Positions 895 through 35,339 of a stretch of 64,000 nucleotides of DNA are shown here, one piece after another. Source of the DNA: Candidatus Aenigmatarchaeota archaeon (lineage in GTDB: Archaea > Aenigmatarchaeota > Aenigmatarchaeia > CG10238-14 > SpSt-28); NCBI GenBank assembly GCA_038997305.1, contig JAWAZZ010000001.1:44159-108158 (forward strand), written 5' to 3'. The notes beneath the pieces were generated by a model. It did not search any database. It was not told the DNA's origin and saw only the letters and a program-made list of their open reading frames with translations. Positions within the stretch are counted from its first letter, which is position 1; every line of letters starts with the position of its first letter. The position numbers were made by a program, and so were the translations under genes.

Positions 895-1545
895 ATGCCT
901 ACTTTAAGGAGTGGTGCAGTTATAGTTGGAGCATATGCGACAAAAATAAGAAAAACTTTGTTTGCTCAGCTAAGAGATAAAGTAAAGTCTAAAGAGATGA
1001 GTGGACAAGAAGTAGCTAGAGCTGCAGGAGAAATTAATAAAATGTTATATGTTCTTTTTGTAGAGAAATTAAGATTAGATAAAGGGGATGTTGTTAGAGT
1101 AACAATAGATTATGATGTAACTCCAGAGAATCAAATTGTCTGGAATTATCAAACTTTAAAAGTAGAAGCTTATCGAAAAGTTCCTGAAGATGAAGTTAAT
1201 AGATATTTAAATGAAATATTAGAAGGGATTCAAAAAGTTTCTCAACTAAATGTTGAAGAATATGTAATAGAAAAAGTGAGAGAAACAAAATTAGGCGATA
1301 TTATTTTTGATATTAAAAGAGATAAAAAAATAGTTGGAATATTAATCGCTACTAATATAGATGATGAAGTTATAGTTAGGGGCGCAATAAAAAACCCACC
1401 ATTTTTAATTAAAAAACAAAAAATAAAATTCGAAGAGAGTATCGAAAATTCTGTTGCTAAAAACTTCCATAATTTGTTAAGAGGAGCAATTCCAACTAGC
1501 GAAGAAGAGGCAGAAAAAACAATAAAAGAAATTAGAGAACTTTAA
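895..1545 (+). CDS. conserved hypothetical protein (soluble, 216 aa)
   Basis: Clean ATG ORF with a 1-nt overlap (TAATG) with endonuclease V downstream. I recognise no family. Confidence 0.5.
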   Translation: MPTLRSGAVIVGAYATKIRKTLFAQLRDKVKSKEMSGQEVARAAGEINKMLYVLFVEKLRLDKGDVVRVTIDYDVTPENQIVWNYQTLKVEAYRKVPEDEVNRYLNEILEGIQKVSQLNVEEYVIEKVRETKLGDIIFDIKRDKKIVGILIATNIDDEVIVRGAIKNPPFLIKKQKIKFEESIENSVAKNFHNLLRGAIPTSEEEAEKTIKEIREL

Positions 1546-2153
1546 TGAATTCTCTCTTAAAATTTTTCTATCACTTTCAAAATCTTATAGCTAAAAATGT
1601 AAAGATAGAATATTTGAATTTTAATTTTGTTGATAAAATTGCTTTTCTAGATTGTGGATATAAAAAAGATAAAATAAAATGTGTTTGTGTAATTTTTAGC
1701 AAAAAAGAAAATAAAATCGAAAGTGTTGATGAAATAATAGATACGCCAGCATTTCCTTATATTCCAACTTTTTTGTTTTTAAGAGAAGCTCCATTTATGT
1801 TAGAACTAATAGAAAGAAATAAAGCAGATCTGTATGTAATAGATGGCCATGGATTGTCCCATCCAAGAAAAGCTGGAATAGCAACTGTAGTAGGAGTTTT
1901 AAAAGATATTTCATGTATAGGTATTGCCAAAAAATTTTTGTTTGGAGAAATAAGAGAAGATAAAATCTTTGTAGAAAATGAGATTGTTGGTCTAAAATTT
2001 AAAAAATATTACATAAGCATCGGAAACAAAGTTGATATAAATACTTTAAGAGAGTTTCTGGAATTTTTTGGTTACGAATATCCTTGGCCAATGGAGTTAG
2101 CAGATAAGATTTCTAAAGATTTTTCTACTTCTCCAAGTAAGAAATTAGAATAA
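1545..2153 (+). CDS. nfi: endonuclease V
   Basis: Motif YVIDGHGLSHPRKAGIATVVGV matches the Endo V signature DG.G..HPR..G.A.H.G. The length is about 200 aa. Confidence 0.75.
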   Translation: MNSLLKFFYHFQNLIAKNVKIEYLNFNFVDKIAFLDCGYKKDKIKCVCVIFSKKENKIESVDEIIDTPAFPYIPTFLFLREAPFMLELIERNKADLYVIDGHGLSHPRKAGIATVVGVLKDISCIGIAKKFLFGEIREDKIFVENEIVGLKFKKYYISIGNKVDINTLREFLEFFGYEYPWPMELADKISKDFSTSPSKKLE

Positions 2154-3388
2154 ACTTCTTTTACTTTCACTTCTACAAATTTTCCAAATTCTGCATTTTT
2201 TAAGAATATAGGTTTATAATAAATATTTCTTGCAATAAACCCATTATCAACCTTTTCATCTACTAATGCAACTCCTTTCCAATCTTTCCATTTTTTATTG
2301 TTTTCTAATGAAATTTCTCTGATTAAACTATGTAATATCTTCGATCTTTCATCAACTATTTTTGAATGTAATTGCTTTAATGTTGCTGCATATGTATTTG
2401 GCCTTGGAGAAAATTTTGATAGATTTACAACATCTGGTCTTAAATTTTTCAGTAATTCTATAGTTTGTTCAAAATCTTTTTCTGTTTCTGTTGGATATCC
2501 AACTATTATATCTGTCGCGATTGTTATGTTTTTTACTTTTCTCCTAAAAATATTAACCCAATCCATAAACTCTTCGATAGTATATCCTCTTCTCATATGC
2601 TTTAAAACTTCATTAGAACCACTTTGAACTGGAACATGTAAAAATTTGAATATTTTTTCATCATTAAATAACTCAGCCAGTTTTTCAACTTCTAATTTTT
2701 TAAAGTGTAAAGGGTTCATCATCCCAACTCTTATCCAAAACTTTCCTTCAATTTCTATTAAACTTTCTAATAAATCTATGAGAGTTACTCCTATATCTCT
2801 TCCATACGCAGAATTATCTTGTGAGGTTATCCATATTTCTTTTGCTCCGTTTTTGACTGCATTAATTACTTTTTCTTTTATATCGCTTATCCTATAGCTA
2901 GTTAAGTTTCCTTTTGCCAATTTCGTTTCGCAAAATGTGCAGAAAGATAAACAACCAGATGCAATCTGAATTATTTCTATTATAGGATTGAATCTTATAG
3001 AAGGTAATTTTGCTTTGTTAGCATTTCCATTAAGTTCAACTCTTTTTATTCCTCTTAATGTATCTATTGTAACTTCAACAATCTTATCTATAGAATTTGG
3101 AGAAATTATACTTGCATTAGGATTTAATTTTTCTATTCTTTCTTTTTCTGCCTTTGCCATACAACCAGCAACTATTAATGGCTTTTTTAAAGAAGATAAA
3201 AATCTTATTCTTGATATCATTCTGCTTGCTGTTGCTTGTTTTACAACGCAAGTATTTATAATGTTTACATCAGCATTTTTTGGATTATCAACTATTTCAA
3301 AATTCGCATTTTTTAATAGAGCTAACATTATTTCGCTATCGTTCTTATTTGCGGCACATCCATATGTTTCTAAATAAACCTTTGGCAT
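2072..3388 (-). CDS. MiaB/RimO-family radical SAM methylthiotransferase (archaeal MtaB/CDKAL1-like, t6A37 methylthiotransferase)
   Basis: N-terminal MTTase domain VYLETYGCAANKNDSE. A radical SAM cysteine cluster CLSFCTFC and a TRAM-like C-terminus are present. Length 438 aa. Confidence 0.8.
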   Translation of the reverse strand: MPKVYLETYGCAANKNDSEIMLALLKNANFEIVDNPKNADVNIINTCVVKQATASRMISRIRFLSSLKKPLIVAGCMAKAEKERIEKLNPNASIISPNSIDKIVEVTIDTLRGIKRVELNGNANKAKLPSIRFNPIIEIIQIASGCLSFCTFCETKLAKGNLTSYRISDIKEKVINAVKNGAKEIWITSQDNSAYGRDIGVTLIDLLESLIEIEGKFWIRVGMMNPLHFKKLEVEKLAELFNDEKIFKFLHVPVQSGSNEVLKHMRRGYTIEEFMDWVNIFRRKVKNITIATDIIVGYPTETEKDFEQTIELLKNLRPDVVNLSKFSPRPNTYAATLKQLHSKIVDERSKILHSLIREISLENNKKWKDWKGVALVDEKVDNGFIARNIYYKPIFLKNAEFGKFVEVKVKEVYSNFLLGEVEKSLEILSANSIGQGYS

Positions 3389-10477: not shown

Positions 10478-13505
<3,028 letters not shown>

Positions 13506-13558: not shown

Positions 13559-13571
13559 AAGTATTTATTTT

Positions 13572-13903
13572 ATGAAACTTATTTCATCAATCTTTCTAAA
13601 CTTAATTCTAGCAACTCTAATAGCTATTAGCACTATACTAATAATTTACTTCACTCAATTTTATCAAACAAAATATGTAGAAGAATTAGAAAGAATTAGA
13701 TTTAATCAGCAAGTTTATGATTTAGCAAAAAAATTAGCAAATTGCTTAGGATTTGAATATGAAAAAACTTATTACTTAGATTATAAAAAAATTGAAGAGT
13801 TTAGTAAAATTTATAATGATATAGAACCAAGATGTGCAATTGCAAAAGATTTTGATTATAATGTTAAAATAATACAATTTGAAAAAGAAGTTAGAAATTA
13901 TCC
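13572..13903 (+). repeat. 332-nt coding module, apparently identical to 16008..16339
   Basis: Read base by base, both copies run from the ATG through ...gaagttagaaattatcc and then diverge. Confidence 0.8.
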
Positions 13904-14963
13904 TTTTCCAATCTTTGAAGAAAAACCAAAAGGGAAAGGTATAGCAGAAGATATCTTAAATAGGATAGATGGAAAAAAGGTAATTTTTGTATTGGATGTT
14001 AGTGGTTCTATGGGAGCTGCAGATACTCCACCATGTAATGGAAAAGAATTTAATAGCGGAGATAATACTAGAATATGTTGCTTAAAAAAGTTTGTTATTC
14101 ATTTTCTAGATAAACTTTCTAACGATACTGAAATTGGAATTAATTTTTTTGGTGTTGGAAATTGCAATTATAATTGGGCTGTAAAACCATATTCAAATAT
14201 TTCTGTAATTTATGAAGTTGCAAAAAAACAAACTCTTTCTCAAACTCCTCAAGATGGCACTCCAATATTAATTTCTTTGTATGATGCAGCTATAAACGCA
14301 GAAAATAATTCTTACGTAGTTCTTCTTACAGATGGTGGAGAAAATTGTGGAGGAGTTAGTTTATCTGAAGTAATTAATTTAATTAAATCAAAAAATTTAA
14401 CTCTACTATCTATAGGTTTTGGAAAAGGTGCTGATGTAGGATTTTTGAAATATTTAAAATCTCAGGTCGGTGGAGAAGTTTATGAAGCTATGAATTGTGA
14501 AGAATTAATAGAAAAGAAGGAAGAGTTTAAACAAAAAATTCTAAAAGTCGAAAGAAAAGAATTTTCTTTTGGTATGTTAGAAAAAGAACTCGCAGGAATA
14601 AGATCTTTTGGTCCAAAAATAAACTTACAAACTTCAATTTCAATCCCAATTTTAATTAAGTACAACGAAACTTTTATAGTTGAAGGATTAATGATAATTA
14701 ATGCATATAAAGGATTTTTAGAAGAATTTTATAGTTTCTTAGACGATATTTGTTCAAAAGATTTTGATAATTTTGAAATTACAAAACAGTTTTATTTTGA
14801 TTATAATGTTAAAATTTTAAAAGAAAATGATTATTATAAAATTTGTAGCGAAAATGTTTGTAAAAAATTAGTTTGTAAGTATGAGATTGAAGAAAAAGAA
14901 TTTGATAAGGGAGATAATGTAATAAATGTGAAAATAGAAAATAAAAAAATTATTATTAGGTGA
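13572..14963 (+). CDS. membrane-anchored von Willebrand factor A (vWA) domain protein; shares identical N- and C-terminal modules with 16008..17798
   Basis: N-terminal TM MKLISSIFLNLILATLIAISTILIIYF. The MIDAS motif VLDVSGSMG and downstream QDGTP and LTDGGEN complete a vWA fold. Confidence 0.7.
   Translation: MKLISSIFLNLILATLIAISTILIIYFTQFYQTKYVEELERIRFNQQVYDLAKKLANCLGFEYEKTYYLDYKKIEEFSKIYNDIEPRCAIAKDFDYNVKIIQFEKEVRNYPFPIFEEKPKGKGIAEDILNRIDGKKVIFVLDVSGSMGAADTPPCNGKEFNSGDNTRICCLKKFVIHFLDKLSNDTEIGINFFGVGNCNYNWAVKPYSNISVIYEVAKKQTLSQTPQDGTPILISLYDAAINAENNSYVVLLTDGGENCGGVSLSEVINLIKSKNLTLLSIGFGKGADVGFLKYLKSQVGGEVYEAMNCEELIEKKEEFKQKILKVERKEFSFGMLEKELAGIRSFGPKINLQTSISIPILIKYNETFIVEGLMIINAYKGFLEEFYSFLDDICSKDFDNFEITKQFYFDYNVKILKENDYYKICSENVCKKLVCKYEIEEKEFDKGDNVINVKIENKKIIIR
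14533..14931 (+). repeat. 399-nt coding module, apparently identical to 17368..17766
   Basis: Both copies run from aaaaaattctaaaagtcgaaag through ...gataatgtaataaatgtga and then diverge. Confidence 0.8.
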
Positions 14964-15004
14964 TACAAAAAGTATTTATATTTTTTTGTACATAAATTAA
15001 TACC

Positions 15005-15196
15005 ATGATAATTCCAGTTAGATGTTTTACATGTGGAAAGGTAATTGGACATTTATGGGAAGAATATGAGAGAAGAGTTAAGAATGGCGAAGAACCAAAG
15101 AAAGTTTTAGACGAGTTAGGATTAAAGAAGTATTGTTGTAGACAGATATTTATAACACATAGAGAATTAATTAAGGAAATCGCAAAATTTAAATAA
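15005..15196 (+). CDS. rpoN: DNA-directed RNA polymerase subunit N (Rpb10 homologue)
   Basis: [15 protein letters not shown]...CCRQ zinc-binding signature. Length 63 aa. Confidence 0.85.
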
Positions 15197-15444
15197 TGTA
15201 TCCTAGAGATAGGTTAACAAGATTTGAAGTAGCTAGAATTATCTCAGCAAGAGCATTACAAATAGAATACGGAGCACCTTGTTTTGTTGATATTAAAGGT
15301 AATTCTATTCAAAAAGCGAAGGAAGAATTTAAAAGAAAGTTAATTCCTTTAACAGTGAGAAGAAGATTACCTAATGGGGAAGTAGTAGAAGTAGACATAG
15401 ATAAAGCGATAGATAATTGGCTTAAGGAGCACGGTGACGTTTAA
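15196..15444 (+). CDS. rpoK: DNA-directed RNA polymerase subunit K (Rpb6 homologue)
   Basis: LTRFEVARIISARALQIEYGAP matches the RpoK/Rpb6 core. It overlaps the rpoN stop (TAATG). Confidence 0.8.
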   Translation: MYPRDRLTRFEVARIISARALQIEYGAPCFVDIKGNSIQKAKEEFKRKLIPLTVRRRLPNGEVVEVDIDKAIDNWLKEHGDV

Positions 15445-15994
15445 TTAATTTTAAAATAATAAAGATAATTACAATTAGAAATGTTAAGAAAATGATGATT
15501 GCTAAATGGTTAGGGTAAGAGTATTTTCTTTCTTCTTTTATTTTTTCTCCTGGAGTTTCTGTACTTTCGTTTTCTAAAACTTTTAAAGTTTGATTTAGTA
15601 AAACTAGTTTAGCTTTTTCTTTATCGCTAATAAAAATTTTTATTAAAGTAGTGTTTTCCGGAAATTTAAAAACTAAGCTTTTTATTATATAATCTTTTTC
15701 TATTATTTCTTTTCCTCTTTTAATGCTAAAAACTTCTTGAAAAAAATCTTCTTTAGAGTAGTTTAGGTAGACAATTTTTAAAACATTGTTTGAAGGATCA
15801 TAGCAAACAACTTTAATATTTCCGCTATTTAAATAATTTTCGTTTGCGAAATCTAAAAAGTAATTTGCAGTAATTTTAACATCTTCGTTTTTACTTATAA
15901 GAATTTCTAAATAAAGAAACTTATCTGAAGAATAAGAATAATGTATTAAAGTGCTTAAGATTAATAAGGGTATTAATATTAATATTTTTTTCAT
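15422..15994 (-). CDS. secreted hypothetical protein with C-terminal TM anchor
   Basis: Signal peptide MKKILILIPLLILSTLIHYSYS and C-terminal TM LAIIIFLTFLIVIIFIILKLIKR. Start placed at the ATG giving MKKIL, 13 nt from the divergent start at 16008. Confidence 0.5.
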   Translation of the reverse strand: MKKILILIPLLILSTLIHYSYSSDKFLYLEILISKNEDVKITANYFLDFANENYLNSGNIKVVCYDPSNNVLKIVYLNYSKEDFFQEVFSIKRGKEIIEKDYIIKSLVFKFPENTTLIKIFISDKEKAKLVLLNQTLKVLENESTETPGEKIKEERKYSYPNHLAIIIFLTFLIVIIFIILKLIKRHRAP

Positions 15995-16007
15995 AAAATA
16001 TATTCTT

Positions 16008-16339
16008 ATGAAACTTATTTCATCAATCTTTCTAAACTTAATTCTAGCAACTCTAATAGCTATTAGCACTATACTAATAATTTACTTCACTCAATTTTAT
16101 CAAACAAAATATGTAGAAGAATTAGAAAGAATTAGATTTAATCAGCAAGTTTATGATTTAGCAAAAAAATTAGCAAATTGCTTAGGATTTGAATATGAAA
16201 AAACTTATTACTTAGATTATAAAAAAATTGAAGAGTTTAGTAAAATTTATAATGATATAGAACCAAGATGTGCAATTGCAAAAGATTTTGATTATAATGT
16301 TAAAATAATACAATTTGAAAAAGAAGTTAGAAATTATCC
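16008..16339 (+). repeat. second copy of the 332-nt module
   Basis: See 13572..13903. Confidence 0.8.
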
Positions 16340-17798
16340 AATACAAATTGGTGGTGGTTGTGGATGGGCATGGGTTGTTAATAGTGGTTCTGGAGGAATG
16401 CATAGTTCAATCTCCTTAGTTACTTCTGAAGGCTCTGAGTTAAGAAGACATTATACTCATCCAAATAAAGCGGGTAATCCATCTAGAACTGCTGTAGATA
16501 TCGAAGGAAATGTTTGGGTTGGAAATAGAGCAGATGGTACTTTAGTTAAAATCACATTTGACAAAAATAAATGTAAAGGAGCTACTTCTGAAGATAAAGA
16601 TGGTAATGGAAAAATTGATTATAATGAAATGCTTGATTTTTCTTCTGATGGATGTATAGAGATAAAGTTAGATTTAAAATGCAGTTATGTTGGTGTCAGA
16701 GCAGTTTGTATAGATAATGAATCAAAATACGTATATGCCGGTTGTTATAATGATAGGAAATTATTTAAAATTTCTAATAAAGATGGTAGCATAGAAAAAG
16801 TCTGGAATTTACCAGCAACTCCTTATGGATGTGTTGTTGGTAATGATGGAAATGTTTGGATTTCAACAGCTTCATCTATTTTAATAAAGTTAAATCCAAA
16901 TACTGATGAAATTAAAACATTTAGTGTTCCTTTCATATATGGCATTTGGAGATGTTATAATTTAGATTGTGTTGTTTTTTCTGAGTGGACTTTAAATAGA
17001 ATTGCACTATTTAATACGACATCTGAAAAAATAATATGGGAAAGATCTAGCGGAATAAATACAAGAGGAGTTTTTGTCGACGAAAATAATTACATTTATG
17101 CAGTAGGAAGTTCTAGTAATGATATATACAAGTATGATATAAATGGAAATTTAATAAAAGTCGCAAAGACTTGTGGAATACCTACAGGAGTTGCTCAAGA
17201 TGCTTGCGGTTATTTGTGGGTGCAATGTATGGATGGTTATGTTTACATTTTTGATAAAGACTTAAATTTAATAAATTTCTTTTCAATATCTGGAATTCAT
17301 TATACTTATTCAGACTTTACAGGATTTTTATCTAATGCAAAAGTTAGTGTGCCACTAAAAATTGAGGAAAAAATTCTAAAAGTCGAAAGAAAAGAATTTT
17401 CTTTTGGTATGTTAGAAAAAGAACTCGCAGGAATAAGATCTTTTGGTCCAAAAATAAACTTACAAACTTCAATTTCAATCCCAATTTTAATTAAGTACAA
17501 CGAAACTTTTATAGTTGAAGGATTAATGATAATTAATGCATATAAAGGATTTTTAGAAGAATTTTATAGTTTCTTAGACGATATTTGTTCAAAAGATTTT
17601 GATAATTTTGAAATTACAAAACAGTTTTATTTTGATTATAATGTTAAAATTTTAAAAGAAAATGATTATTATAAAATTTGTAGCGAAAATGTTTGTAAAA
17701 AATTAGTTTGTAAGTATGAGATTGAAGAAAAAGAATTTGATAAGGGAGATAATGTAATAAATGTGAGAGTAAGTGAAAGAAAATTAATAATTTCATAA
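16008..17798 (+). CDS. membrane-anchored beta-propeller-like protein with EF-hand-type Ca-binding loop; shares N- and C-terminal modules with 13572..14963
   Basis: The first 110 aa and last 133 aa are identical to the vWA paralog. The middle (GNVWVGNRADGTLVKI, DKDGNGKIDYNEM, repeated NVWIS/YVYA blades) is homologous to the N-terminal half of 38418..40652. The true start is ATG at 16008; the track start is upstream. Confidence 0.7.
   Translation: MKLISSIFLNLILATLIAISTILIIYFTQFYQTKYVEELERIRFNQQVYDLAKKLANCLGFEYEKTYYLDYKKIEEFSKIYNDIEPRCAIAKDFDYNVKIIQFEKEVRNYPIQIGGGCGWAWVVNSGSGGMHSSISLVTSEGSELRRHYTHPNKAGNPSRTAVDIEGNVWVGNRADGTLVKITFDKNKCKGATSEDKDGNGKIDYNEMLDFSSDGCIEIKLDLKCSYVGVRAVCIDNESKYVYAGCYNDRKLFKISNKDGSIEKVWNLPATPYGCVVGNDGNVWISTASSILIKLNPNTDEIKTFSVPFIYGIWRCYNLDCVVFSEWTLNRIALFNTTSEKIIWERSSGINTRGVFVDENNYIYAVGSSSNDIYKYDINGNLIKVAKTCGIPTGVAQDACGYLWVQCMDGYVYIFDKDLNLINFFSISGIHYTYSDFTGFLSNAKVSVPLKIEEKILKVERKEFSFGMLEKELAGIRSFGPKINLQTSISIPILIKYNETFIVEGLMIINAYKGFLEEFYSFLDDICSKDFDNFEITKQFYFDYNVKILKENDYYKICSENVCKKLVCKYEIEEKEFDKGDNVINVRVSERKLIIS
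17368..17766 (+). repeat. second copy of the 399-nt module
   Basis: See 14533..14931. Confidence 0.8.
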
Positions 17799-18476
17799 TT
17801 GCGTTTTCTTATATAATTTGACTTTGTTAATTCTTTTGGTATACATAATGAAGGTAATTATAGCTATTGCTATAATTAGAAGTATAAAAATTGAAATTGG
17901 CGGTATATAATATTCTTTGCAATCTGGATCTTCTGGGCAATTCGGTTCGCAATAATTATCTTTTAAATTTGGACAAATTTTTAATTTACAATCATTGCAA
18001 TTAATTTCATTTTCACCAAGCTTTTTTTCACATACTGAATTTTCATTACATATTTTTGTTTCTAGTATTTTTTGATCAAAATTGAACATTTCAATTTTAC
18101 TTAAATCTTTAAGATATGGAAATCTAAAATATTTTTCTAAACATTCGAATTCTACTTCTTCTCCCTTCATCTCTCCAGTAATAGGATCTATTATTTCTCT
18201 ATGAGTTTTAAAAGATTGTGAAAAATTATATTGCAGCAAAACAGAATTATTAGTAGAGTAGAGAAGTATGGTATAATTTCCAAAACCAATTTTATTTGAT
18301 TCTACATATTCTGGATTTTCAATTATTCCATAATCTATCAAAAAAACAGAATTATTTTTACATATATTTATTAGCAAATAAAATGTTTTATCACTTATTA
18401 TTTTTTCTTGGAAAGAAATTTCTAAGTAAATAGATATTATAAATAAAATTAATTGAGATAATAGTTTGATCTTCAT
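17793..18476 (-). CDS. secreted Cys-rich protein with C-terminal TM anchor
   Basis: Signal peptide MKIKLLSQLILFIISIYL, a CNDCKLKICPNLKDNYCEPNCPEDPDC cluster, and C-terminal TM FILLIIAIAIITFIMY. Confidence 0.5.
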   Translation of the reverse strand: MKIKLLSQLILFIISIYLEISFQEKIISDKTFYLLINICKNNSVFLIDYGIIENPEYVESNKIGFGNYTILLYSTNNSVLLQYNFSQSFKTHREIIDPITGEMKGEEVEFECLEKYFRFPYLKDLSKIEMFNFDQKILETKICNENSVCEKKLGENEINCNDCKLKICPNLKDNYCEPNCPEDPDCKEYYIPPISIFILLIIAIAIITFIMYTKRINKVKLYKKTQL

Positions 18477-18489
18477 AATATAAACTTAT

Positions 18490-19872
18490 TTATCTTATAC
18501 AATATTTCATCCATCTACCTAGGCCAGCAGAATAAGGAGGATTTCCCATAAATCCTTCAGATAAAAACTTATAGGCTGCCGGACCGAATTTTTCCATAGG
18601 TAAACAATAATCCATTATAAATTTAGAAACTTCTGGATGATTGCAATCTGGGCAATTAGGTGCAGGTCCACCAAAAAATGGATAATATAGGCATGCATGA
18701 CAATCTACATTACAATTAACATGACCCAAACCCAATTGATGTCCTAATTCATGAGTAGGTACACAAACACGTTTACTACAGCTATGAGCTATACTTGATG
18801 AGCCATCAGAAGGGATTCCTTGTGCGCATCCACCAGCCCAACCGCCACCAGTTGTTAATGCAACAAATTTATCATAATTAACTCCAAATTTATTCTCCAT
18901 TTTTCTTGCGCATTCTCTTGCTATGTCTATACAATCAGAACAATGGTCATAGCAATCTTTATTAGCAGATTCCGGACAATCTGAAATATTAATTATCCAA
19001 AACCTAACTATATCATCTTTATTCTTACATTCTCTAAATGGAGATACCTCAAGAAAATGCTCAATGAAAGATGTTGCAGCAGATAAATACAAGTTCTCAT
19101 CAGTAATATCTACAGGAACTATAAAGACGTCAAAAGTATCTAAATTTATGCAATCTTTTCCATTCCAAGATTTTCCTGGAGGACAACACGCTTTTCCAGA
19201 TTTGTATGATGTAAAATCTTTTGTAACAGGATTGCAAGTTAAGCCGCTAGAGCATTGATTATTGCAATAACATTCTTCACCTTCTTTTAAATTGTATCTT
19301 TTCGTATTTCCAGTTTCATCTGAGCTTGGATCTTCTGGACAGCATACCGCATCACTTTTAATACAATCATTAGAGTTTTTGCAATTTTCTCTTATGTCAA
19401 CATTGCAATAACCATCGTTTATGCATTGAGGATTTGGACCATAACAATCTTGAGAAGAAGTCCTACATTCTATTGGAGTACAAACATTATCGATTAAATA
19501 ATCTATTTTTCTGCAATCTAAAATTCTAATGACACTCTTTTCTTTTATAATACAATATTTGCCAGTATTATATATTTCTATATCTTGAGTTTTAAAAGGT
19601 AAATAATAAGAATATTCATAATCTTTGTAAAAAACTTTCAATTTATTGTCTTTTATTGTTAAGTTACTATATAAAAATTGGTATTCGTAATAAAAGTATT
19701 CGCTTTTTAATTTTGAAATTCTTTCTATTGTGGAAATGAATTTTTCAATTTCTTCGTTGAATTTTTGTTTTTCTAAACTTTTAGAAAAATTAAATAGAAA
19801 AATCTGAAATGCAGTAAAAAACAAAATTCCAATTACTATTGAAATCGTTATTAAGGAAAAAATATTTGTCAT
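18490..19872 (-). CDS. membrane-anchored metzincin-type zinc metalloprotease with Cys-rich module
   Basis: Exact HExxHxxGxxH motif (HELGHQLGLGH) with a downstream Met-turn candidate FIMDY. N-terminal TM. The Cys module GEECYCNNQCSSGLTCNPV...ACCPPGKSWNGKDC recurs in 38418..40652. Confidence 0.7.
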   Translation of the reverse strand: MTNIFSLITISIVIGILFFTAFQIFLFNFSKSLEKQKFNEEIEKFISTIERISKLKSEYFYYEYQFLYSNLTIKDNKLKVFYKDYEYSYYLPFKTQDIEIYNTGKYCIIKEKSVIRILDCRKIDYLIDNVCTPIECRTSSQDCYGPNPQCINDGYCNVDIRENCKNSNDCIKSDAVCCPEDPSSDETGNTKRYNLKEGEECYCNNQCSSGLTCNPVTKDFTSYKSGKACCPPGKSWNGKDCINLDTFDVFIVPVDITDENLYLSAATSFIEHFLEVSPFRECKNKDDIVRFWIINISDCPESANKDCYDHCSDCIDIARECARKMENKFGVNYDKFVALTTGGGWAGGCAQGIPSDGSSSIAHSCSKRVCVPTHELGHQLGLGHVNCNVDCHACLYYPFFGGPAPNCPDCNHPEVSKFIMDYCLPMEKFGPAAYKFLSEGFMGNPPYSAGLGRWMKYCIR

Positions 19873-20390
19873 GAAATTCTTAATATTAGGTAACCAATTT
19901 CCTCATCTGGCATAGGTATTGGCAAAACATAACTTTTTATCGTTTCTGAAGGTTTTAAATTATAACCATAGATTTCGTATAAGCTTTGGTTTTTATATAT
20001 AACTAGCTGCCATCTTTCTTTACCAATCATATTATCTAACATAGGATAAAGCAAATCTGAAGAATTATATGCTCCTAAAGCCATTCCATAATAAACAATT
20101 TTTCCTAAACCAAGATCTTCTTTAACTTTTTCTCTTTCACTTTCTTTCCATTTATTTAGAGTTAGTAGCGCATCTATCGATGTTTGTAAATAAGTTTTTT
20201 CTAATGTAGGTAATTTGGCTGTATAAACTGAAGCTAATGTTTTTAATGCTAAATCATCTATAACAGAAAATCTATGAAAATATTGGGATTTTGTTGAGAG
20301 TTGTGAAATGTAATACAATGTAATTACTATAACAATAGATGAAATTATTAAAATAATACCAATCCATATAATTTCACTTTGAAGTTTCAT
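19869..20390 (-). CDS. small protein with N-terminal TM helix (possible pilin-like or minor filament subunit)
   Basis: MKLQSEIIWIGIILIISSIVIVITLYY followed by a soluble ~140-aa domain. Co-oriented and overlapping the metzincin gene. Confidence 0.4.
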   Translation of the reverse strand: MKLQSEIIWIGIILIISSIVIVITLYYISQLSTKSQYFHRFSVIDDLALKTLASVYTAKLPTLEKTYLQTSIDALLTLNKWKESEREKVKEDLGLGKIVYYGMALGAYNSSDLLYPMLDNMIGKERWQLVIYKNQSLYEIYGYNLKPSETIKSYVLPIPMPDEEIGYLILRIS

Positions 20391-20419
20391 AAAATTAAAA
20401 TTAGTAAGGATATAATATT

Positions 20420-21748
20420 ATGTTAAAGTTACAAGTAGCACAATTTGCTTTTATAATATTTGCTATACTTTTTTTTCTTTTAAGTTTATATTTGTCATAT
20501 TTTCAATTTGGAAAAAGAATAGAAGAAATTAGCAATATAAGAACTATTGACATTTTTGAAAATTTGAAACATATTATAGATGGGTATGCGAAATTAGCAC
20601 TTTATTATGCTACAACTCAAAATTTTAGAGAAGAAAGTCATGTATGGATTCAAAATGGATTCAATCCGCTAGAGTTTGAACTTTTAAAAGAATGCAAAGA
20701 AAATTACACTACATTTTTCTTTAATCAATATCTTTCAAAATTTAATGTTAATTTACCAGTTAATATAGAAATTAAAAAAGTAAACAGATGCTTTTTTGAT
20801 TTAAAAGAAGAAAATGTTTTTAGTGGCTTGAACGATGAGGGAAATTTTTCTGTTTTTTGCAATTCTACTAACGTAAAAATTTATATAAATGAAACATTTC
20901 TTTTAGACTTTATTAATTCTTCTAACTTTATAACTAACAACAGGTATTGGTATCTTTATAGAAAGTTTTATGAATGGGCTAAAGAAAATGCAGATAAATT
21001 TGTGGCTTGTGTCTGTTCATTAGTAAAATCTTGTGCAACCTGTAATGCAATAGAAACATGTTATAAAGGCTTATTAGAAAGTTTGAGAAATAAGTTTAAA
21101 GATGATAAATATGTTGAATGTAATACAGATCCTACTCCTTGTTGCTATCAAGAATATGGCGATTTATGTAAATTACCAGATGTTTGTCAAGCATGGCAAA
21201 ATAGATGTTATGTTGCAGATAAGTTGGATTGTCCTATACTAGAAGAATCAGATGAGAAAAAAACACACGGCTATAAAAATCATAACGAAAACAACTACTT
21301 AATAGAATTTTCTAAAAATGTAGTTCTTTCTAATCCTCAAAATTATGTTACCGAATTTTATTGTGAAAGTTGTATATGGCAAGAGAATAGAATAGAAACT
21401 CATAGAAGATATTATTGTATAGATTATAAGTACTATGAATCAAGTCCTTCTGGTCCAAAACCAATAGAATTTACTGCGATAGTTTATGCTGGCTTAAAGA
21501 ACTATGTTTCTTGCATTTCTAAAGTCAAAAATAAGTGCGAAAGTATAACCACAGAATGTGAAAATTGTAATGATGTTGGAGGTAAAACTATATGTGATAA
21601 ATGTATTTTAAAAAACTGTGAAAAAAAGGGATGTAAAGAATGTTGGTTAGAGTGCGAAGAATGTGAAGTTAAGAAATTAAATGGAGAATTCGAAGTTATC
21701 CAGTGTAAAAAATGTAAGAATAAGCCAGATGATGTCTGTCCAAAATGA
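20420..21748 (+). CDS. membrane-anchored Cys-rich protein
   Basis: N-terminal TM with more than 35 Cys. C-terminal CENCNDVGGKTICDKCILKNCEKKGCKECWLECEECE cluster. Confidence 0.5.
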   Translation: MLKLQVAQFAFIIFAILFFLLSLYLSYFQFGKRIEEISNIRTIDIFENLKHIIDGYAKLALYYATTQNFREESHVWIQNGFNPLEFELLKECKENYTTFFFNQYLSKFNVNLPVNIEIKKVNRCFFDLKEENVFSGLNDEGNFSVFCNSTNVKIYINETFLLDFINSSNFITNNRYWYLYRKFYEWAKENADKFVACVCSLVKSCATCNAIETCYKGLLESLRNKFKDDKYVECNTDPTPCCYQEYGDLCKLPDVCQAWQNRCYVADKLDCPILEESDEKKTHGYKNHNENNYLIEFSKNVVLSNPQNYVTEFYCESCIWQENRIETHRRYYCIDYKYYESSPSGPKPIEFTAIVYAGLKNYVSCISKVKNKCESITTECENCNDVGGKTICDKCILKNCEKKGCKECWLECEECEVKKLNGEFEVIQCKKCKNKPDDVCPK

Positions 21749-22135: not shown

Positions 22136-24193
22136 ATGATAAGTGAACAAAAATTAGAACAATTAAAAAAAGAGTTTTCGACATATTATTTGGAATTTTA
22201 TTTAAAAGAAATAGAAAAATCTGCAAGAAGAAACTGGTATGAAAAACTTTGTGCAATTTCTTCAAAAATTTTACCTATAAAGGCATATCCTAAAAAACTT
22301 TCAGAAACCATAATTTTTTCTAATTTGAATGTTTTACCGAATGAAGTTGTAAGTTTAACAATACTTTCTTTTTTAATTCTTTTTGGAGTTTCTTTAATTC
22401 TATATTTCATTTTTACTGATTTGGGAATTTTTGTTTTTGCTTTGCCAATAGGCATTTCATACATTCTATATACTTATCCAGATTTTAAGGCAAAAGTAAA
22501 TAGAATTCAAACAAATTCAGAAGCAATAAAAATAATTACTTATCTTGTTTTATATTTAGAAACAATTCCAAATTTTGAAGGAGCAATAGATTTTGCAGCA
22601 AGAAGAGTTAAAGGAATTATTAGCGATGATATGAAAAAAATTTCTTGGGATATTAGAACTGGAAAGTTTTCGACATTAAAAGAAGCATTAGAGCATTATA
22701 TTCCAAAATGGTTAAAATGGAATGAAAATTTTGTGAGAGCTTTAATTTTGTTATCAAATATATCTTATGTAACTTCTAGTGAAGAAAGAAAAACATTATT
22801 AAGAAAAACATTAGATTTTATTTTGGCAAAAAACTTAGAGGAAACGAAAATTTATGTAGAAAAAGTCAGAGGTCCTATAACTATTTTGTTTCTTTTTGGA
22901 TTATTGATGCCATCTATAGGTTTAATAATGTTTCCTATGATTTCTGTATTTTTGCATTTTAGCGTAAAACCATCTTACATAATTTTTGGATATTTGGTTG
23001 TATTACCTCTTATGAACTATTACTTAATAACTAGAGTAATTTCTTTAAGACCAGGAGCTTTTCTTATAGTAGATATATCTAAGCATCCAAAATTGCCTCC
23101 AGAGAATTATTTTTATTATGGAAATGTTTTAATACCCATAATACCTCTATCAATTTTAGTTTTTGCATTGGTTAGTTTTTATGGAATAAATCATATAGGA
23201 AATTTTTATATCGAGTTTAATAGGCAGCTAGAAATAAATCCTAAAAAAGCAGAGGAAATGCTAAGAGCCGAAAATAATATTCAAAACTATGCTGGCTTAG
23301 CTGCTAGCTTTTCCATAACATTAGGTTTTGGTCTAGCCGCTTTTTTATACTTTTATCTAAACTCTTTTCAAAAGGTAAGAATTAGAAAAGAAGTTAAGGA
23401 TATTGAAGAAGATCTACCAAACTTGTTAATTACTAGTGGAAATTTCTTAGAAGCTGGGTATCCTTTTGAAAAAACGATAGAAAAAACTTTGGAGGAATAT
23501 GAAAGATTAGGAATGAAAGAAAAAGCTGGTTATAAATTTTATTCTTTGTTAAAGGAGAGAATTGTAAAGTTTGGAGAAAACATATATGAAGCAATCTTTG
23601 GAAGTAATGGTTTGATTTTTTATTTTCCATCCGTTTTATTGGAAGAAGTCTTTAGAATAATAACTGAAACTTCTAAAAAAAGTGTTAGAAGCGCTGGAAC
23701 TATTGCTAAAACAATTTCTAGATATTTAGAAAATATTTGGCAAACAGAATTTAGATTGAAAGAATTATTGGCAGATGTTAGAGGAAATTTAAAAATGCAA
23801 GCTCAATTTTTAATTCCTATAATTACAGGAGTTATTAGTGCTACTGGAATTTTTATAATAAGTTTATTATCTTTCTTAGCAGATTACTTAAGTAGGTTTG
23901 AAAAAAGTTTCGGAATAACTTCAGGAATTTCTGAGGTTATTAATGTTATGGTCGGAGATTTTAAAAGAGTAATACCAATGCCTTTATTACAAGCCGTTGT
24001 TGGATGTTATACTGTAATAGCAATAATATTGATGTCTTACTTGCTTAGTGGAGTTGAAAATGGATTTGATAGAGTTGCTAGAGATGATGAAATTTCTCAA
24101 AACCTAAAGTTTGGTTTGATAATATACTTTATAATAGGAATAGCATCTCTAATAGTTTTTGCAAATATAATATCTTCTTTACAATTAACATAA
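22136..24193 (+). CDS. polytopic membrane protein, TadC/FlaJ/GspF-like platform protein candidate
   Basis: 685 aa built as (helical cytoplasmic domain + ~3 TM) x2, resembling type II/IV secretion F-domain platform proteins. Flanked by small N-terminal-TM proteins. The assignment is by architecture only. Confidence 0.4.
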   Translation: MISEQKLEQLKKEFSTYYLEFYLKEIEKSARRNWYEKLCAISSKILPIKAYPKKLSETIIFSNLNVLPNEVVSLTILSFLILFGVSLILYFIFTDLGIFVFALPIGISYILYTYPDFKAKVNRIQTNSEAIKIITYLVLYLETIPNFEGAIDFAARRVKGIISDDMKKISWDIRTGKFSTLKEALEHYIPKWLKWNENFVRALILLSNISYVTSSEERKTLLRKTLDFILAKNLEETKIYVEKVRGPITILFLFGLLMPSIGLIMFPMISVFLHFSVKPSYIIFGYLVVLPLMNYYLITRVISLRPGAFLIVDISKHPKLPPENYFYYGNVLIPIIPLSILVFALVSFYGINHIGNFYIEFNRQLEINPKKAEEMLRAENNIQNYAGLAASFSITLGFGLAAFLYFYLNSFQKVRIRKEVKDIEEDLPNLLITSGNFLEAGYPFEKTIEKTLEEYERLGMKEKAGYKFYSLLKERIVKFGENIYEAIFGSNGLIFYFPSVLLEEVFRIITETSKKSVRSAGTIAKTISRYLENIWQTEFRLKELLADVRGNLKMQAQFLIPIITGVISATGIFIISLLSFLADYLSRFEKSFGITSGISEVINVMVGDFKRVIPMPLLQAVVGCYTVIAIILMSYLLSGVENGFDRVARDDEISQNLKFGLIIYFIIGIASLIVFANIISSLQLT

Positions 24194-31688: not shown

Positions 31689-34600
31689 ATGAATGGAAAA
31701 TTCTTAAATGTAATACTATTTTTAATTTTCTTTTTGAGTTTTGGTATAGTTTATTCTGAAAATTATGTTTTAAGTCTTAAAAAGGGATGGAACTTGATTT
31801 CGATACCCTTAGCTCCATCTAATATAGAGTCTGTAAAATGTGATATATCTTCTATTTGGTCATATGAAAACGGTAAATGGAAAAAATTGAGTAATATTAA
31901 TCAGTTAGTTCCTGGTAAAGGTTATTGGATATATGTTAGAAGTGCTACATGCGATATCGTTATCTATGGAGATAGAATAAATTATAATCCAATAGAAAAA
32001 TTAAGTAAAGGATGGAATTTAGTTGGTATTGGTTCTAATGAAATATATGTTAAAGATTTAAAAAATGTTTGTAAAAATATTACTAGAATTTGGAGTTATG
32101 AAAATGGCAGATGGATAAAATTAAATGATGATGATAAATTAATTCCTGGTAAAGGATATTGGATATATAGTAGAGATGAATGTGATTTAGGAAGAAGCAA
32201 GTTTGTAGGTTCTTCTAGTTGTCAATGTTATGATAATCTTAAAATAAATCCGGATAAAACTACATTTTCTCCTGGAGAAACTATAAATTTCGAAAGTGTT
32301 TGTGGTGATCAAGGAAATCTTATAACAATAGTTTTGAAAGATCCTAGTGGTAGTCAAAAAGCATCTGCATATTCTACTTGTCCTAGTCCAACTAGTAAAG
32401 CAAGCGGTAGTTATACATTTAAATCTACTGATCCTGCAGGAACTTGGAAATTAATAATGGATGTGAGTGGAGTTACTTGTGAGCATTGTGAAAAAGAAAT
32501 AACATTGCAAGGAACACAACAACAATGTAGTGTATCAGTATCTAATATAAATATTCAACAAACAAATACACCTACTTGTGGTCAATCAGCAACACTTTCA
32601 GTATCTATATCTGGTACAGCAACAAATTGCCAATCTTTAAAAGCAGAAATTTATGAAGATCAAACTTTATTAAAAACAATATCATGTAGCATTTCGAATA
32701 ATAATTTACAATGTTCTGACACATTAACTTTAACAGTCTCTTCTAATAATCAAGAAGCAGACTTTGATATAGTAATTAAAGATAGTAATAACAATGAAAA
32801 GGCTAGAAGTCCTAAGAGAATTACATTACAATGTCAATCACAACAACAATGTCAAGTAACTTTAAATTCGTTATCTCTAAATCCATCATCCACGAACCAA
32901 TGTGGTCAATTAATTCCATTAACTATAACTGTTAGTTATTCAGCTAGTGGAAATTGTCAAAACAAATATATTACAGTTTATGATCATGATAATAATGTTT
33001 TAGGTTATATTCCAATAGATACTTCTAAAACAAGTGGCTCATTAAATTTAAATACTTACAACGTTCCTTCAAAAAGTGATAAATATTTAATTTGGGCCTT
33101 AGCAGAAGGTTCCTCACAACAAGTTTCTGCATATTTAGATGTTCAATGTCAATCACAACAACAATGTCAAGTAACTCTTAATTCATTATCTCTAAGTGAA
33201 TCAACAGCACAATGCAATCAACAAATTTCATCATTAACAGCAACTGTTAGTTATTCAGCTAGTGGAAATTGTCAAAATCAAAACATAATAGTTTATAAAC
33301 CAGATGGAAGTGTTTTGTGCAATATTCCAATAGATACTTCCAAAAATAGCAATTCATGTTCAGCTAGTTATACTGCTCCATCGCAAAGTGGTATACATAC
33401 ATTCAAAGCTGTTTATGGAACTCAAGAAAAAACAGCAAGTTTAAATGTTCAATGTCAAAGTCAAGAAACTAAAATAGAAGTTTCTATAACTGCAGATAAA
33501 ACAACTTCTTATGTTAGAGACAAAATTAAAATAAGAGCAACTGCAAGATTCACCAATCTAAAAGAAACAGGAACATATGAGTTGTGGATATGTAGAGAAG
33601 GGTTATCATATTGTTTAGCATCTGCTGCAAAGGTTTGCACAGATTCAAATTGTCTTAGAGAATTAGAGCAAAACGGTCTAACAAAAGAATATGAAGCTAC
33701 TTCAGATTGTAGCGGAAGTTATAAATATTATGCAAAAGTTTATTTAGGAACTGATAAAGAACTTGCCAAGAGTAATCCAATAGAAGTTAATTTTAAGCTT
33801 CATGAAGGTTTAAAGATAGATGAATTAAAAGTTGAACCTCCAAAAGCAGATTCAGAGCAAAAAATAATAATAACTTTAAACCCAGATACATATAGAATAC
33901 TAAATGAATATTATTGTGAAGGATGTAAAGGTTTTAATACAGGTGATTATTTTGTATCAGTACCAGAATATTATGATCCTAATGGAAATAAAGTACAACT
34001 TTTGATACCAGCTTGTAACGAAAATGATATAAGACAAAACAATGGTAAGTGTGTAATAGATAAGTATTTTAGTGGTAGTCCACTTAAACTGTTTAATAAA
34101 CCAGGAACATATAAAGTAAGGGCAGTTTTAATGAGAGAGTGTGTAAGAGATGCTACTACTACAGAAAAGTTGACCGAAGGTTGGTTTACTGTAACAATTT
34201 CTTCACAAAATTGTGTTGTTAACATCTCTGAGGTTAAAGTTGAAAAAGTAGATTCTAATATACCAAATTGTGGCCAAACTATAAATTTGAAATTCACGGT
34301 TAATGGAAAGCATACTTCTTGTTCTAGTAGCGATATCGCTGCAATAATTTACGAAGGTTCTAGTGAGATTGGAAAATTACAATGTAATGTAAATAATGAT
34401 GGTACATTTAGATGCGAAGGACAACTTCAATATAAGATAATAGTTTCAGGAACCAAAACATTCAAAGCAAAAGTTCTTGATAAAGAAAAAGAGAGTAATC
34501 AAATAGATTTATCTTGTCAACAACAGCAACAACAATGTACATCTGGTCAAACAAAATGCGAAAATAACAAATTATACGAATGTGTTAATGGACAATGGCA

Positions 34601-35339
34601 AGACAAAACTCCTTCGTGTCCACAGGGTCAACAGTTTGTATGTGTAGATCAAACGCGTGGAGAATGTAGACAACAGCAACAACAATGTCAATTAAAATCT
34701 GTAAATATAGAAAGTGTTAGACAATTAACAAAATGTGATGGGACAAAAGTTAGATACGAAGTAACTGTTTTTACAGATTATGAAAATTGCGAACAAATGC
34801 CTAAGGTAACTCTAGAATATGGAAGAAAAGATCAATTAAGACCTTCTAAAACACAACAACCAAAATCTGTTAGTAATGATGGAAAGAGAGCTATTTTTGA
34901 GGTAGAAATTAGTGGAGTTAGACATGGAACGCAGGTTTTCTTTAGAGCAACTGCTGAAATTTCTGGTCAACAGAAATCTACTGTCGATGAAGAAAGAACT
35001 GTAAATTGTTATGTAGAAGAAGATACATATAAATGTATTGTCGATAACAACAGGGTAAAAATAGTAGCTTCTAACAACCAAGTTATATGGGAAAAAGAAA
35101 ATACACAGACCATTTCATACTATTGTAAAAAAGAGAGTATAAGTGCTAGAAAAGGTATAACATCTAGTGATGGTGATTTTGAAGATTTCTTGAATGCTTT
35201 AGTTGGAGCAAGAAAAGTTTTTACTTGCAGTTTTTCAAACGGAAGGATAGAATGTAATATTGGTAATTTAAATGTGAGAGGTAGCACTGTTTGTATTCTA
35301 GTAGACAATAATAATGCTATATGTAAAACAGTTAGTTAA
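31689..35339 (+). CDS. giant secreted Cys-rich modular surface protein (2 GWN repeats, four ~104-aa Ig-like tandem repeats, Gln-runs, Cys6 knot repeat)
   Basis: Signal peptide MNGKFLNVILFLIFFLSFGIVYS with start at ATG 31689 (31653 is also possible). It contains the modules listed separately below. Confidence 0.65.
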   Translation: MNGKFLNVILFLIFFLSFGIVYSENYVLSLKKGWNLISIPLAPSNIESVKCDISSIWSYENGKWKKLSNINQLVPGKGYWIYVRSATCDIVIYGDRINYNPIEKLSKGWNLVGIGSNEIYVKDLKNVCKNITRIWSYENGRWIKLNDDDKLIPGKGYWIYSRDECDLGRSKFVGSSSCQCYDNLKINPDKTTFSPGETINFESVCGDQGNLITIVLKDPSGSQKASAYSTCPSPTSKASGSYTFKSTDPAGTWKLIMDVSGVTCEHCEKEITLQGTQQQCSVSVSNINIQQTNTPTCGQSATLSVSISGTATNCQSLKAEIYEDQTLLKTISCSISNNNLQCSDTLTLTVSSNNQEADFDIVIKDSNNNEKARSPKRITLQCQSQQQCQVTLNSLSLNPSSTNQCGQLIPLTITVSYSASGNCQNKYITVYDHDNNVLGYIPIDTSKTSGSLNLNTYNVPSKSDKYLIWALAEGSSQQVSAYLDVQCQSQQQCQVTLNSLSLSESTAQCNQQISSLTATVSYSASGNCQNQNIIVYKPDGSVLCNIPIDTSKNSNSCSASYTAPSQSGIHTFKAVYGTQEKTASLNVQCQSQETKIEVSITADKTTSYVRDKIKIRATARFTNLKETGTYELWICREGLSYCLASAAKVCTDSNCLRELEQNGLTKEYEATSDCSGSYKYYAKVYLGTDKELAKSNPIEVNFKLHEGLKIDELKVEPPKADSEQKIIITLNPDTYRILNEYYCEGCKGFNTGDYFVSVPEYYDPNGNKVQLLIPACNENDIRQNNGKCVIDKYFSGSPLKLFNKPGTYKVRAVLMRECVRDATTTEKLTEGWFTVTISSQNCVVNISEVKVEKVDSNIPNCGQTINLKFTVNGKHTSCSSSDIAAIIYEGSSEIGKLQCNVNNDGTFRCEGQLQYKIIVSGTKTFKAKVLDKEKESNQIDLSCQQQQQQCTSGQTKCENNKLYECVNGQWQDKTPSCPQGQQFVCVDQTRGECRQQQQQCQLKSVNIESVRQLTKCDGTKVRYEVTVFTDYENCEQMPKVTLEYGRKDQLRPSKTQQPKSVSNDGKRAIFEVEISGVRHGTQVFFRATAEISGQQKSTVDEERTVNCYVEEDTYKCIVDNNRVKIVASNNQVIWEKENTQTISYYCKKESISARKGITSSDGDFEDFLNALVGARKVFTCSFSNGRIECNIGNLNVRGSTVCILVDNNNAICKTVS
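31775..32195 (+). repeat. tandem pair of ~62-aa GWNL-W.YENGKW-GKGYW.Y modules (coding); about 95% nt-identical to 41530..41862 over ~335 nt
   Basis: LKKGWNLISIPLAP...IWSYENGKWKKL...GKGYWIYVRSATCDI and LSKGWNLVGIG...IWSYENGRWIKL...GKGYWIYSRDECDL. The nucleotide comparison was done by eye. Confidence 0.7.
32510..33760 (+). repeat. four tandem ~310-nt (~104-aa) coding repeats, each beginning QCQSQQQCQV / QQQCSV
   Basis: Repeat starts near 32516, 32829, 33144 and 33449, with conserved ends and variable middles. The TVSYSASGNCQN core recurs. Confidence 0.6.

Follow-up and report, generated by a model that had tools for sequence, protein, structure and literature searches.

Two old paralogues with unrelated heads share base-identical N and C modules in an Aenigmatarchaeota genome: probable gene conversion in a family of putative pilus-linked adhesins

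Introduction

In Helicobacter pylori, the adhesins encoded by babA, babB and babC have near-identical N and C regions around a divergent middle, and gene conversion acts between their loci; several of these loci can each hold any of the paralogues, and chimeras arise via the conserved ends (PMC4552749). The bab family is the closest evolutionary analogue of the two paralogous genes described here, gene A and gene B, which lie in a 64-kb stretch of the genome of a Candidatus Aenigmatarchaeota archaeon (contig JAWAZZ010000001.1; hereafter the window, W in sequence labels). Concerted evolution of the bab paralogues was reportedly described by Pride & Blaser in 2002. The middles of the Bab proteins are variants of one fold, whereas those of the A/B family are unrelated folds, namely von Willebrand factor A (vWA), beta-propeller and Cys-rich domains. 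Bab proteins are bacterial beta-barrel outer-membrane proteins with phase-variable CT repeats, whereas the A/B proteins are archaeal and pilin-like, with no slipped-strand tract seen.

The closest functional analogue is PilB of Streptococcus sanguinis, which joins a pilin module to a vWA module (PMC8179133; PDB 7b7p). In PilB, the extra module is grafted on the C-terminus of a complete pilin module; a fusion of this kind, made by way of a short linker, is how Raynaud et al. (2021) delimit modular pilins. In A/B, the head separates the N module from the C module, with ~140 conserved residues on its C-terminal side. The A/B proteins would work like a modular pilin of another topology, nearer to that of the domain inserted in GspK, which is mentioned in the same paper (PMC8179133). 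The survey in that paper deals with bacteria and reports no concerted evolution, and the A/B proteins differ also in having no canonical cleavage motif.

Archaeal class III pilin-like proteins, those of DPANN included, are presented as fast-evolving 'dark matter' near a gene for a TadC/FlaJ-type platform in PMC6393860. Most of the more distant A/B-family members are like those pilins in having KGQ-type N-termini, whereas neither Pfam nor NCBIfam has a model that matches the N + head + C family or its C module. Work by Makarova, Koonin and Albers from 2016 is also said to deal with the type IV pilin-like proteins of archaea that carry class III signal peptides. With pilE/pilS of Neisseria, the two genes have in common a non-reciprocal recombination between pilin-related sequences with conserved segments. 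The promoterless silent cassettes, the G-quadruplex-forming initiator and the one-way transfer into one expression locus that characterize pilE/pilS were not found for A/B, and no programmed cassette variation of the pilE/pilS, shufflon or diversity-generating retroelement kind was recognized in the 64-kb window.

Results

Genes A and B share base-identical modules around unrelated heads

Gene A (13572–14963, + strand) encodes 463 amino acids and gene B (16008–17798, + strand) 596, and their products are identical to the NCBI proteins P0002 and P0006, respectively, encoded on a contig of 120,962 nt in a 'Candidatus Aenigmatarchaeota' metagenome-assembled genome (MAG). Both are complete open reading frames (ORFs), each with its own start codon and a different upstream region. 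The gene A protein consists of an N module (residues 1–111), a vWA head (112–320), a C module (321–453) and a diverged tail of 10 residues; that of gene B has the N module of gene A, a beta-propeller head (112–453), the C module of gene A and a diverged tail. The constant-variable-constant architecture proposed in the initial annotation of this DNA was therefore borne out, with the same N and C modules around a vWA and a propeller middle.

The extent of the identity was determined by exact extension from seeds. The tract of the N module measures 334 nucleotides (nt) in both copies (13570–13903 and 16006–16339, + strand) and that of the C module 399 nt (14533–14931 and 17368–17766, + strand). 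The identity of 13572–13903 with 16008–16339, initially compared by eye, was exact and begins 2 nt earlier, at 13570/16006, and that of the C tracts was also exact, with no mismatch on base-by-base comparison. Across both tracts, genes A and B showed 0 mismatches in 733 nt, so the divergence between the copies is at most ~0.41% by the rule of three, whereas directly outside the tracts the identity is only 28–45%. At the protein level, residues 1–111 are the same in both, and residues 322–453 of A equal residues 455–586 of B. The tract ends are sharp, with the head inside and a poorly conserved 5' leader or 3' tail outside; the leaders of ~20 nt 5' of the ATG show only partial similarity between the two genes. 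Purifying selection as the sole cause of this identity was rejected, because synonymous positions match as well while orthologues differ by ~20% at the nt level.

The C module had been thought to end the protein. A shared module of ~133 residues was found as expected, but the identity stops 32 nt short of the stop codon. The unconverted 3' tails that follow (14932–14963 in gene A and 17767–17798 in gene B, both + strand, 32 nt each) are homologous but diverged, as 17 of 32 nt are identical versus 9.6 ± 2.7 for random sequences (P ~0.006), and they encode KIENKKIIIR and RVSERKLIIS as the last 10 residues of A and B, respectively.

The head of gene A matched the vWA family PF00092 over residues 137–310 (33 bits versus a cut-off of 23.8, E 9e-8) and has a Rossmann-like alpha/beta fold with the DxSxS motif of a metal ion-dependent adhesion site (MIDAS; DVSGS at 142). 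For the head of gene B, of the SGL/NHL/YVTN-like kind, every Pfam match was below the cut-off, so it is placed in no subfamily. Its AlphaFold2 (AF2) model had a predicted local distance difference test score (pLDDT) >90 over residues 120–430, with regular strand quartets (blades), and Foldseek returned PDB propellers at E 1e-12 to 1e-10, the best match being 1l0q, an archaeal S-layer YVTN propeller + PKD structure. Judged from this model, the head of gene B is a beta-propeller.

In both proteins, AF2 modelled the N module as a helix (2–59), four strands (60–63, 66–70, 95–102 and 105–108) and a short helix, at pLDDT 70–89. The predicted long helix plus beta-sheet has the layout of a type IV pilin. 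A shared N-terminal anchor, described initially as a transmembrane (TM) anchor, is thus present, and it is better described as a pilin-like helix of 58 residues than as a plain TM anchor. The C module, of ~140 residues, is beta-rich with conserved cysteines and was modelled as ~ten strands and one helix (pLDDT 75–87). The linkers at both head junctions were modelled with low confidence; therefore, the ends of the identity tracts coincide with domain linkers. No Pfam or NCBIfam model matched either the N or the C module.

The N module and the C module each contain a short motif, (D/Y)FDYNVKI(I/L) (residues 94–100 and 409–415 of gene A, window positions 13851–13877 and 14796–14822; the same in gene B), and the hidden Markov model (HMM) of the N module weakly matched the C module (E 0.06–0.7). 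The motif may represent an ancient internal repeat or a matching strand pair.

A second strain breaks at the repeat

A second-strain MAG (GCA_038997915.1, locus L001) was 99.78% identical to the window over 4898 nt (11/4898, or 0.22%, different). One of its contigs starts precisely where the C repeat begins, at 17368; since assemblers break at true repeats, such a break is expected if the repeat is also present in the L001 population. Where gene A joins the 23S flank and rpoN, the sequence is unique and lies outside the repeats, and therefore a repeat-induced misjoin is excluded. At 17754, gene B and the paralogous site of gene A in the window carry G (Val), whereas copy B of L001 carries A (Ile), and most other lineages likewise have Ile. 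This single nucleotide polymorphism (SNP) suggests a spread of the derived base from one copy to the other, or a shift of the tract end, after the strains split, though as a single site, with L001 sequence covering copy B only, it serves as a hint.

Both architectures are old, whereas the scaffolds group by lineage

Relatives were collected by full-length protein searches and profile searches, with genome-contig and metagenome scans giving one locus each; loci in related MAGs or contigs are labelled L001–L011, proteins carry P numbers, and genes are called A-type (N-vWA-C) or B-type (N-propeller-C). A-type orthologues were P0003 (L004), P0004 (L005) and P0005 (L006), and B-type orthologues P0007 (L003), P0008 (L007), P0009 (L002), P0010 (L008) and P0011. 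Between lineages, the vWA heads are 57–76% identical and the propeller heads 57–80%, and vWA heads are not related to propeller heads; by these identities, the variable parts keep a by-type orthologous history. The gene B orthologues of L002, L003 and L007 are syntenic, with a conserved downstream neighbourhood, and two more distant vWA-headed relatives, P0041 and P0115, share the ICCLKKF signature. As both head types occur in other Aenigmatarchaeota lineages, both architectures are old, and on this sequence evidence genes A and B are old paralogues.

The N and C modules followed the lineage and not the head. In the N module, A_L004 and A_L005 were 99% identical to B_L007, 81–82% to A_W and 58–59% to A_L006. 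A_L006 was 73% (N) and 77% (C) identical to B_L008, its N module being only 56–59% identical to those of other A-types. At the nt level, cross-type identities in the L003/4/5/7 clade (89–96%) equalled same-type ones (92–93%), and the window modules were 79–82% identical (18–21% different) to those of the nearest other lineage, versus 100% between A and B in W. In bootstrapped neighbour-joining trees, monophyly of the A-types was never recovered, whereas (A_W, B_W) was supported at 100 and (A_L006, B_L008) at 72–98. Lineage-specific indels cross head types as well, and a 4-residue indel in the C module is common to P0005 (A-type) and to P0010 and P0011 (B-type). Inside the L003/4/5/7 clade, the C-module tree separates subclusters by head type, which places the last homogenisation in that clade before its radiation.

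The grouping of N and C by lineage instead of head therefore points to at least three independent homogenisations, or equivalent head transfers, of which that in the window is the most recent. The scaffold modules of A and B thus evolve in concert, by gene conversion or equivalent head transfer. This agrees with both evolutionary claims made at the outset: very recent gene conversion, with 0/733 differences and old by-type heads next to modules that cluster by lineage, and concerted evolution of the shared modules. That a shared interaction partner drives the latter is plausible.

The sequences flanking the tracts point the same way, since the diverged 3' tails and the partly similar leader speak against a fresh whole-gene duplication and for one or more events that replaced the conserved modules of a pre-existing paralogue. 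The gene A tail is 22–23/30 nt identical to the tails of L006 and L002, versus 16/30 nt to that of gene B. Its 10 residues were at one stage taken as type-specific (A_W versus A_L006, 80%), an idea that was dropped because the A_W tail is equally near the B-type tail of L002 (22/30 nt); being equally near tails of both types, it shows only its own non-conversion.

A lineage-specific insertion of gene A, and probable head exchange over evolutionary time

In L007, the 23S gene is followed by 32 nt, the rpoN promoter, rpoN, rpoK, a gene for 189 residues and gene B, with no gene A there. The segment 13552–14972 (+ strand) of the window, which comprises gene A, its leader of ~20 nt and a trailer of 9 nt, is absent from L007. 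The presence of gene A at the 23S-rpoN site is, by this comparison, a lineage-specific insertion or relocation, 2.4 kb from gene B. A direct repeat of 10 nt, AAGTATTTAT, stands on both sides of the insertion, with the left copy at 13559–13568 and the right copy at 14970–14979 (both + strand), the latter overlapping a TATA-like box ~26–32 nt upstream of rpoN that is conserved in L007. AAGTATTTAT occurs only 3 times on the + strand of the 64-kb window, and the probability of its coincidence at both junctions was estimated at ~0.004; the pair would be either a target-site duplication or microhomology. A transposon or integron-cassette origin of the insertion was also considered and rejected, as no transposase was found among the ORFs scanned against Pfam and no obvious terminal inverted repeat was seen, and there is no room for an attC-like site because only 9 nt separate the gene A stop codon from the right AAGTATTTAT.

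Elsewhere, A-type genes occupy other sites. That of L005 lies between an exonuclease gene and YdjM/AlaX, and that of L006 (1871–3229) between orthologues of the window genes for 173 and 442 residues, which are adjacent in the window with a spacer of 29 nt (20391–20419). At the site of L008 syntenic with the L006 vWA gene, a propeller-type gene is found (1515–3317). The alignment of the two loci, at 70–76% nt identity, covers the two flanking genes as well as the N and C modules, and their heads differ. Either the head was replaced by way of the common modules or a deletion, N × N or C × C, resolved an ancestral tandem pair, and by both routes the modules would have been used as recombination substrates.

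A wider family with a putative link to type IV pili

An exhaustive HMMER search for proteins with a full N module (E 1e-14 or better) and a full C module (E 1e-21 or better) retrieved 28 proteins. The middle is a beta-propeller of 336–355 residues in 11 of the 28, a Cys-rich domain without Pfam match in nine (130–161 residues) and a vWA domain in seven (207–229 residues), while one protein, P0040, has almost none (36 residues). On the tree of the scaffold, head types are interspersed, for example in (P0096_Cys, P0115_vWA), at 99, and (P0041_vWA, P0043_Cys), at 75, and the three head types are polyphyletic. Further copies of the constant modules did not turn up in the 64-kb window, where the two complete family genes, without any silent or partial cassette, were all that an HMM search of six-frame ORFs found.

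The archaeal class III (prepilin) signal of the FlaFind/EppA literature consists of a [K/R]-[G/A/S] cleavage motif followed by ~20 hydrophobic residues. Most of the more distant family members start with MKGQ, NKGQ, KSQ or KAQ and continue with a hydrophobic stretch; the G-Q motif is lost in the subfamily of the window. Several window neighbours of genes A and B also have pilin-like N termini.

L011 (10001–17591) belongs to a distant Aenigmatarchaeota-like MAG and carries a vWA-type and a Cys-type family gene 1.3 kb apart, with one pilin-like gene between them; the Cys-rich head has ~140–160 residues and many CxxC-like spacings and belongs to no Pfam family. Downstream of these genes, a protein of 690 residues gave a two-stretch match to Pfam T2SSF (E 2e-5, 24.9 bits, cut-off 25.2). 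In the window, a polytopic membrane protein of 685 residues (22136–24193, + strand) is 31% identical over 684 residues to the L011 protein and 82–84% identical among close relatives, and its gene is conserved beside family genes in W, L002, L007, L008 and L011. The window protein itself had no direct Pfam match, and a PDB profile search returned nothing. It is likely a T2SSF-like protein, that is, a putative pilus platform of the T2SSF/FlaJ/TadC kind. Divergent pilins near TadC/FlaJ genes are known from DPANN genomes (PMC6393860), and surface and pilus genes diversify in Nanoarchaeota (PMC6142677). The family proteins are most likely adhesins that are carried by a type IV pilus-like apparatus or assembled together with it.

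Elsewhere in the window, an ORF of 235 residues (35380–36087, + strand) starts with MLNIRGLKG-FTAIEIVFLIF, a textbook class III signal with Glu at +5, and encodes a candidate pilin; it is located amid genes for large surface proteins.

Discussion

Taken together, we consider it quite probable that genes A and B are old paralogues encoding pilus-linked adhesins, the scaffold of which was recently homogenised by gene conversion. The scaffold would consist of the N and C modules, with an interchangeable head inserted between them via short flexible linkers. Its DNA would have been homogenised very recently by non-reciprocal homologous recombination, in two tracts or in a single event that skipped the non-homologous head, with both tracts extending over the whole stretch of good homology. 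Since rpoN and rpoK would be lost by any crossover between the two direct repeats, only non-crossover products should persist, crossovers being counter-selected. That homogenisation is complete here is probably due to the new position of gene A so near gene B. As for function, the vWA head would bind via its MIDAS site and the propeller head another ligand, in the attachment of a symbiont to its host or to a substrate.

A number of observations weigh against this interpretation or limit it. The proteins of genes A and B and of their close relatives have MK(L/T)ISS at the N-terminus, without the canonical G/A-Q prepilin motif, and no pilus ATPase or prepilin peptidase was found among the window ORFs scanned against Pfam, which were most of those of 90 residues or more. 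The heads dominated all fold searches, so the folds of the N and C modules stayed unclassified. The A/B pairs of other lineages were drawn from different samples and are not proven to share a genome; in the only same-genome pair outside the window, P0041/P0043 of L011, the modules are only ~70% identical at the nt level, so homogenisation would be episodic and not constant. The phylogeny fits a conversion of scaffolds and a transplantation of heads alike, and either copy may have been the donor of the conversion. Finally, assembler consensus in a MAG could slightly inflate the exact identity of the copies, hiding a few real differences.

An artefact of assembly, by which a repeat was collapsed or misjoined, is the least credible of the alternatives. 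The window comes from a MAG, the assembly of the sister strain is broken at the repeat and bubble-popping can turn near-identical repeats into identical ones, but gene A is joined to the 23S flank and to rpoN through unique sequence, each architecture is confirmed by orthologues assembled from other samples, and the L001 contig breaks exactly at the repeat edge, as with a real repeat, so an artefact would at most hide a few SNPs. It is also very unlikely that gene A is a brand-new chimera, in which a recent duplicate of gene B, or of its ends, had its propeller replaced by a vWA domain. Such an origin would suit the lineage-specific position of gene A close to B and an identity that covers exactly the shared modules; however, at least three further lineages have N-vWA-C genes whose heads are orthologous, and P0041 and P0115, with their ICCLKKF signature, are more distant examples. 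In addition, the 3' tail and the ~20-nt leader of gene A differ from those of B, the tail resembling those of orthologues, and the 9–10 nt after the gene A stop codon resemble those after the A-type gene of L005.

The initial annotation had also suggested a head-swapping mechanism. Exchange over evolutionary time is supported by the syntenic site of L006 and L008, with homologous flanks and scaffolds and different heads, and a programmed or selected swapping, in which identical modules are kept as recombination arms for exchange between expression sites and produce adhesin or host-range variation like that of pilE/pilS or bab, would also accord with the different loci of family genes in different lineages, with the polyphyly of the three head types and with the maximal recombination efficiency that perfect identity provides. 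An active or programmed mechanism nevertheless seems unlikely. Each of the two genes is complete, has a start codon of its own and differs from the other in its upstream region; silent or partial cassettes are absent from the window, and no recombinase, transposase, reverse transcriptase or invertase was found among the ORFs of its 64 kb scanned against Pfam, which were most of those of 90 residues or more. Exchange between two expressed genes would moreover be pointless unless expression differs between the sites, and the L006/L008 case is equally explained by a tandem A-B pair and N × N or C × C deletion. A bolder proposal, to which we give a small but appreciable chance, is that the N and C modules are the built-in homology arms of a natural head-exchange system, with vWA, propeller and Cys-rich heads on a pilus-compatible scaffold, which retargets the attachment of a host-dependent archaeon; perfect identity would then be selected, and the placement of rpoN and rpoK would enforce non-crossover outcomes.

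For DPANN archaea, physical attachment to hosts is a necessity, and the attachment proteins are mostly unannotated 'dark matter'; with adhesion domains on a pilin-like scaffold, the N + head + C family offers concrete candidates for host binding. Gene conversion between paralogues is already well known, and the advance lies in the example and the family, not in the principle. The locus would be an unusually clean archaeal case of segment-restricted concerted evolution, in which the scaffold is base-identical while unrelated heads persist, with orthologues of several lineages as a time axis and essential genes between direct repeats. With such a locus, population metagenomes can be used to measure directly how fast archaeal gene conversion proceeds, how long its tracts are and what part it plays in shuffling surface proteins.

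Genomic setting and other surface-protein paralogues

Upstream of gene A lies a stand-alone archaeal 23S rRNA gene (10479–13504), and the window holds no 16S or 5S gene. The 23S gene has 62% GC versus a window mean of 29%, a combination typical of thermophiles. The contig of a relative, L009, encodes reverse gyrase. The 23S gene of L007 is interrupted, at the position equivalent to 12669 of the window, by an intron with a LAGLIDADG endonuclease, and that of the window has no intron.

Between genes A and B, three genes are found: rpoN, for RNA polymerase subunit N/Rpo10 (15005–15196, + strand; PF01194, E 1e-30), rpoK, of the Rpb6/Rpo6 family (15196–15444, + strand; PF01192, E 4e-7), and a gene for a conserved secreted or membrane protein of 190 residues (15422–15994, − strand), with a signal peptide, a C-terminal TM segment and the 189-residue orthologue in L007. 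The 3' ends of rpoK and of this convergent gene overlap by 23 nt (15422–15444), and its start lies 13 nt from that of gene B, so the divergent promoter region common to both is very short.

Downstream of gene B, four conserved neighbours occupy both strands of 17793–21748. They encode a Cys-rich protein of 227 residues with a C-terminal TM segment (− strand), a protein of 460 residues with an N-terminal TM segment and a weak HExxH metalloprotease signal (18490–19872, − strand), and the two proteins of 173 (− strand) and 442 residues (+ strand), both with pilin-like N termini; the putative platform gene follows.

A propeller 37.5% identical to the gene B head was also detected in an ORF of 744 residues (38418–40652, + strand), where it follows an ordinary signal peptide and not the N module. 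This ORF has a Cys-rich segment of 140 nt in common (70% nt identity) with the gene of the 460-residue HExxH neighbour (18490–19872, − strand).

Mosaic sharing was observed, in addition, among three large secreted proteins of 1241, 741 and 805 residues, involving the segments 31776–32188 versus 41448–41860, 34536–34668 versus 42180–42312, and 36272–36655, with nt identities of 89.6%, 91.7% and ~71%. They represent a second instance of partial paralogy among surface proteins, possibly with segmental conversion too, and a '(K)KGWNLISLP' motif lies near the N-terminus of each.

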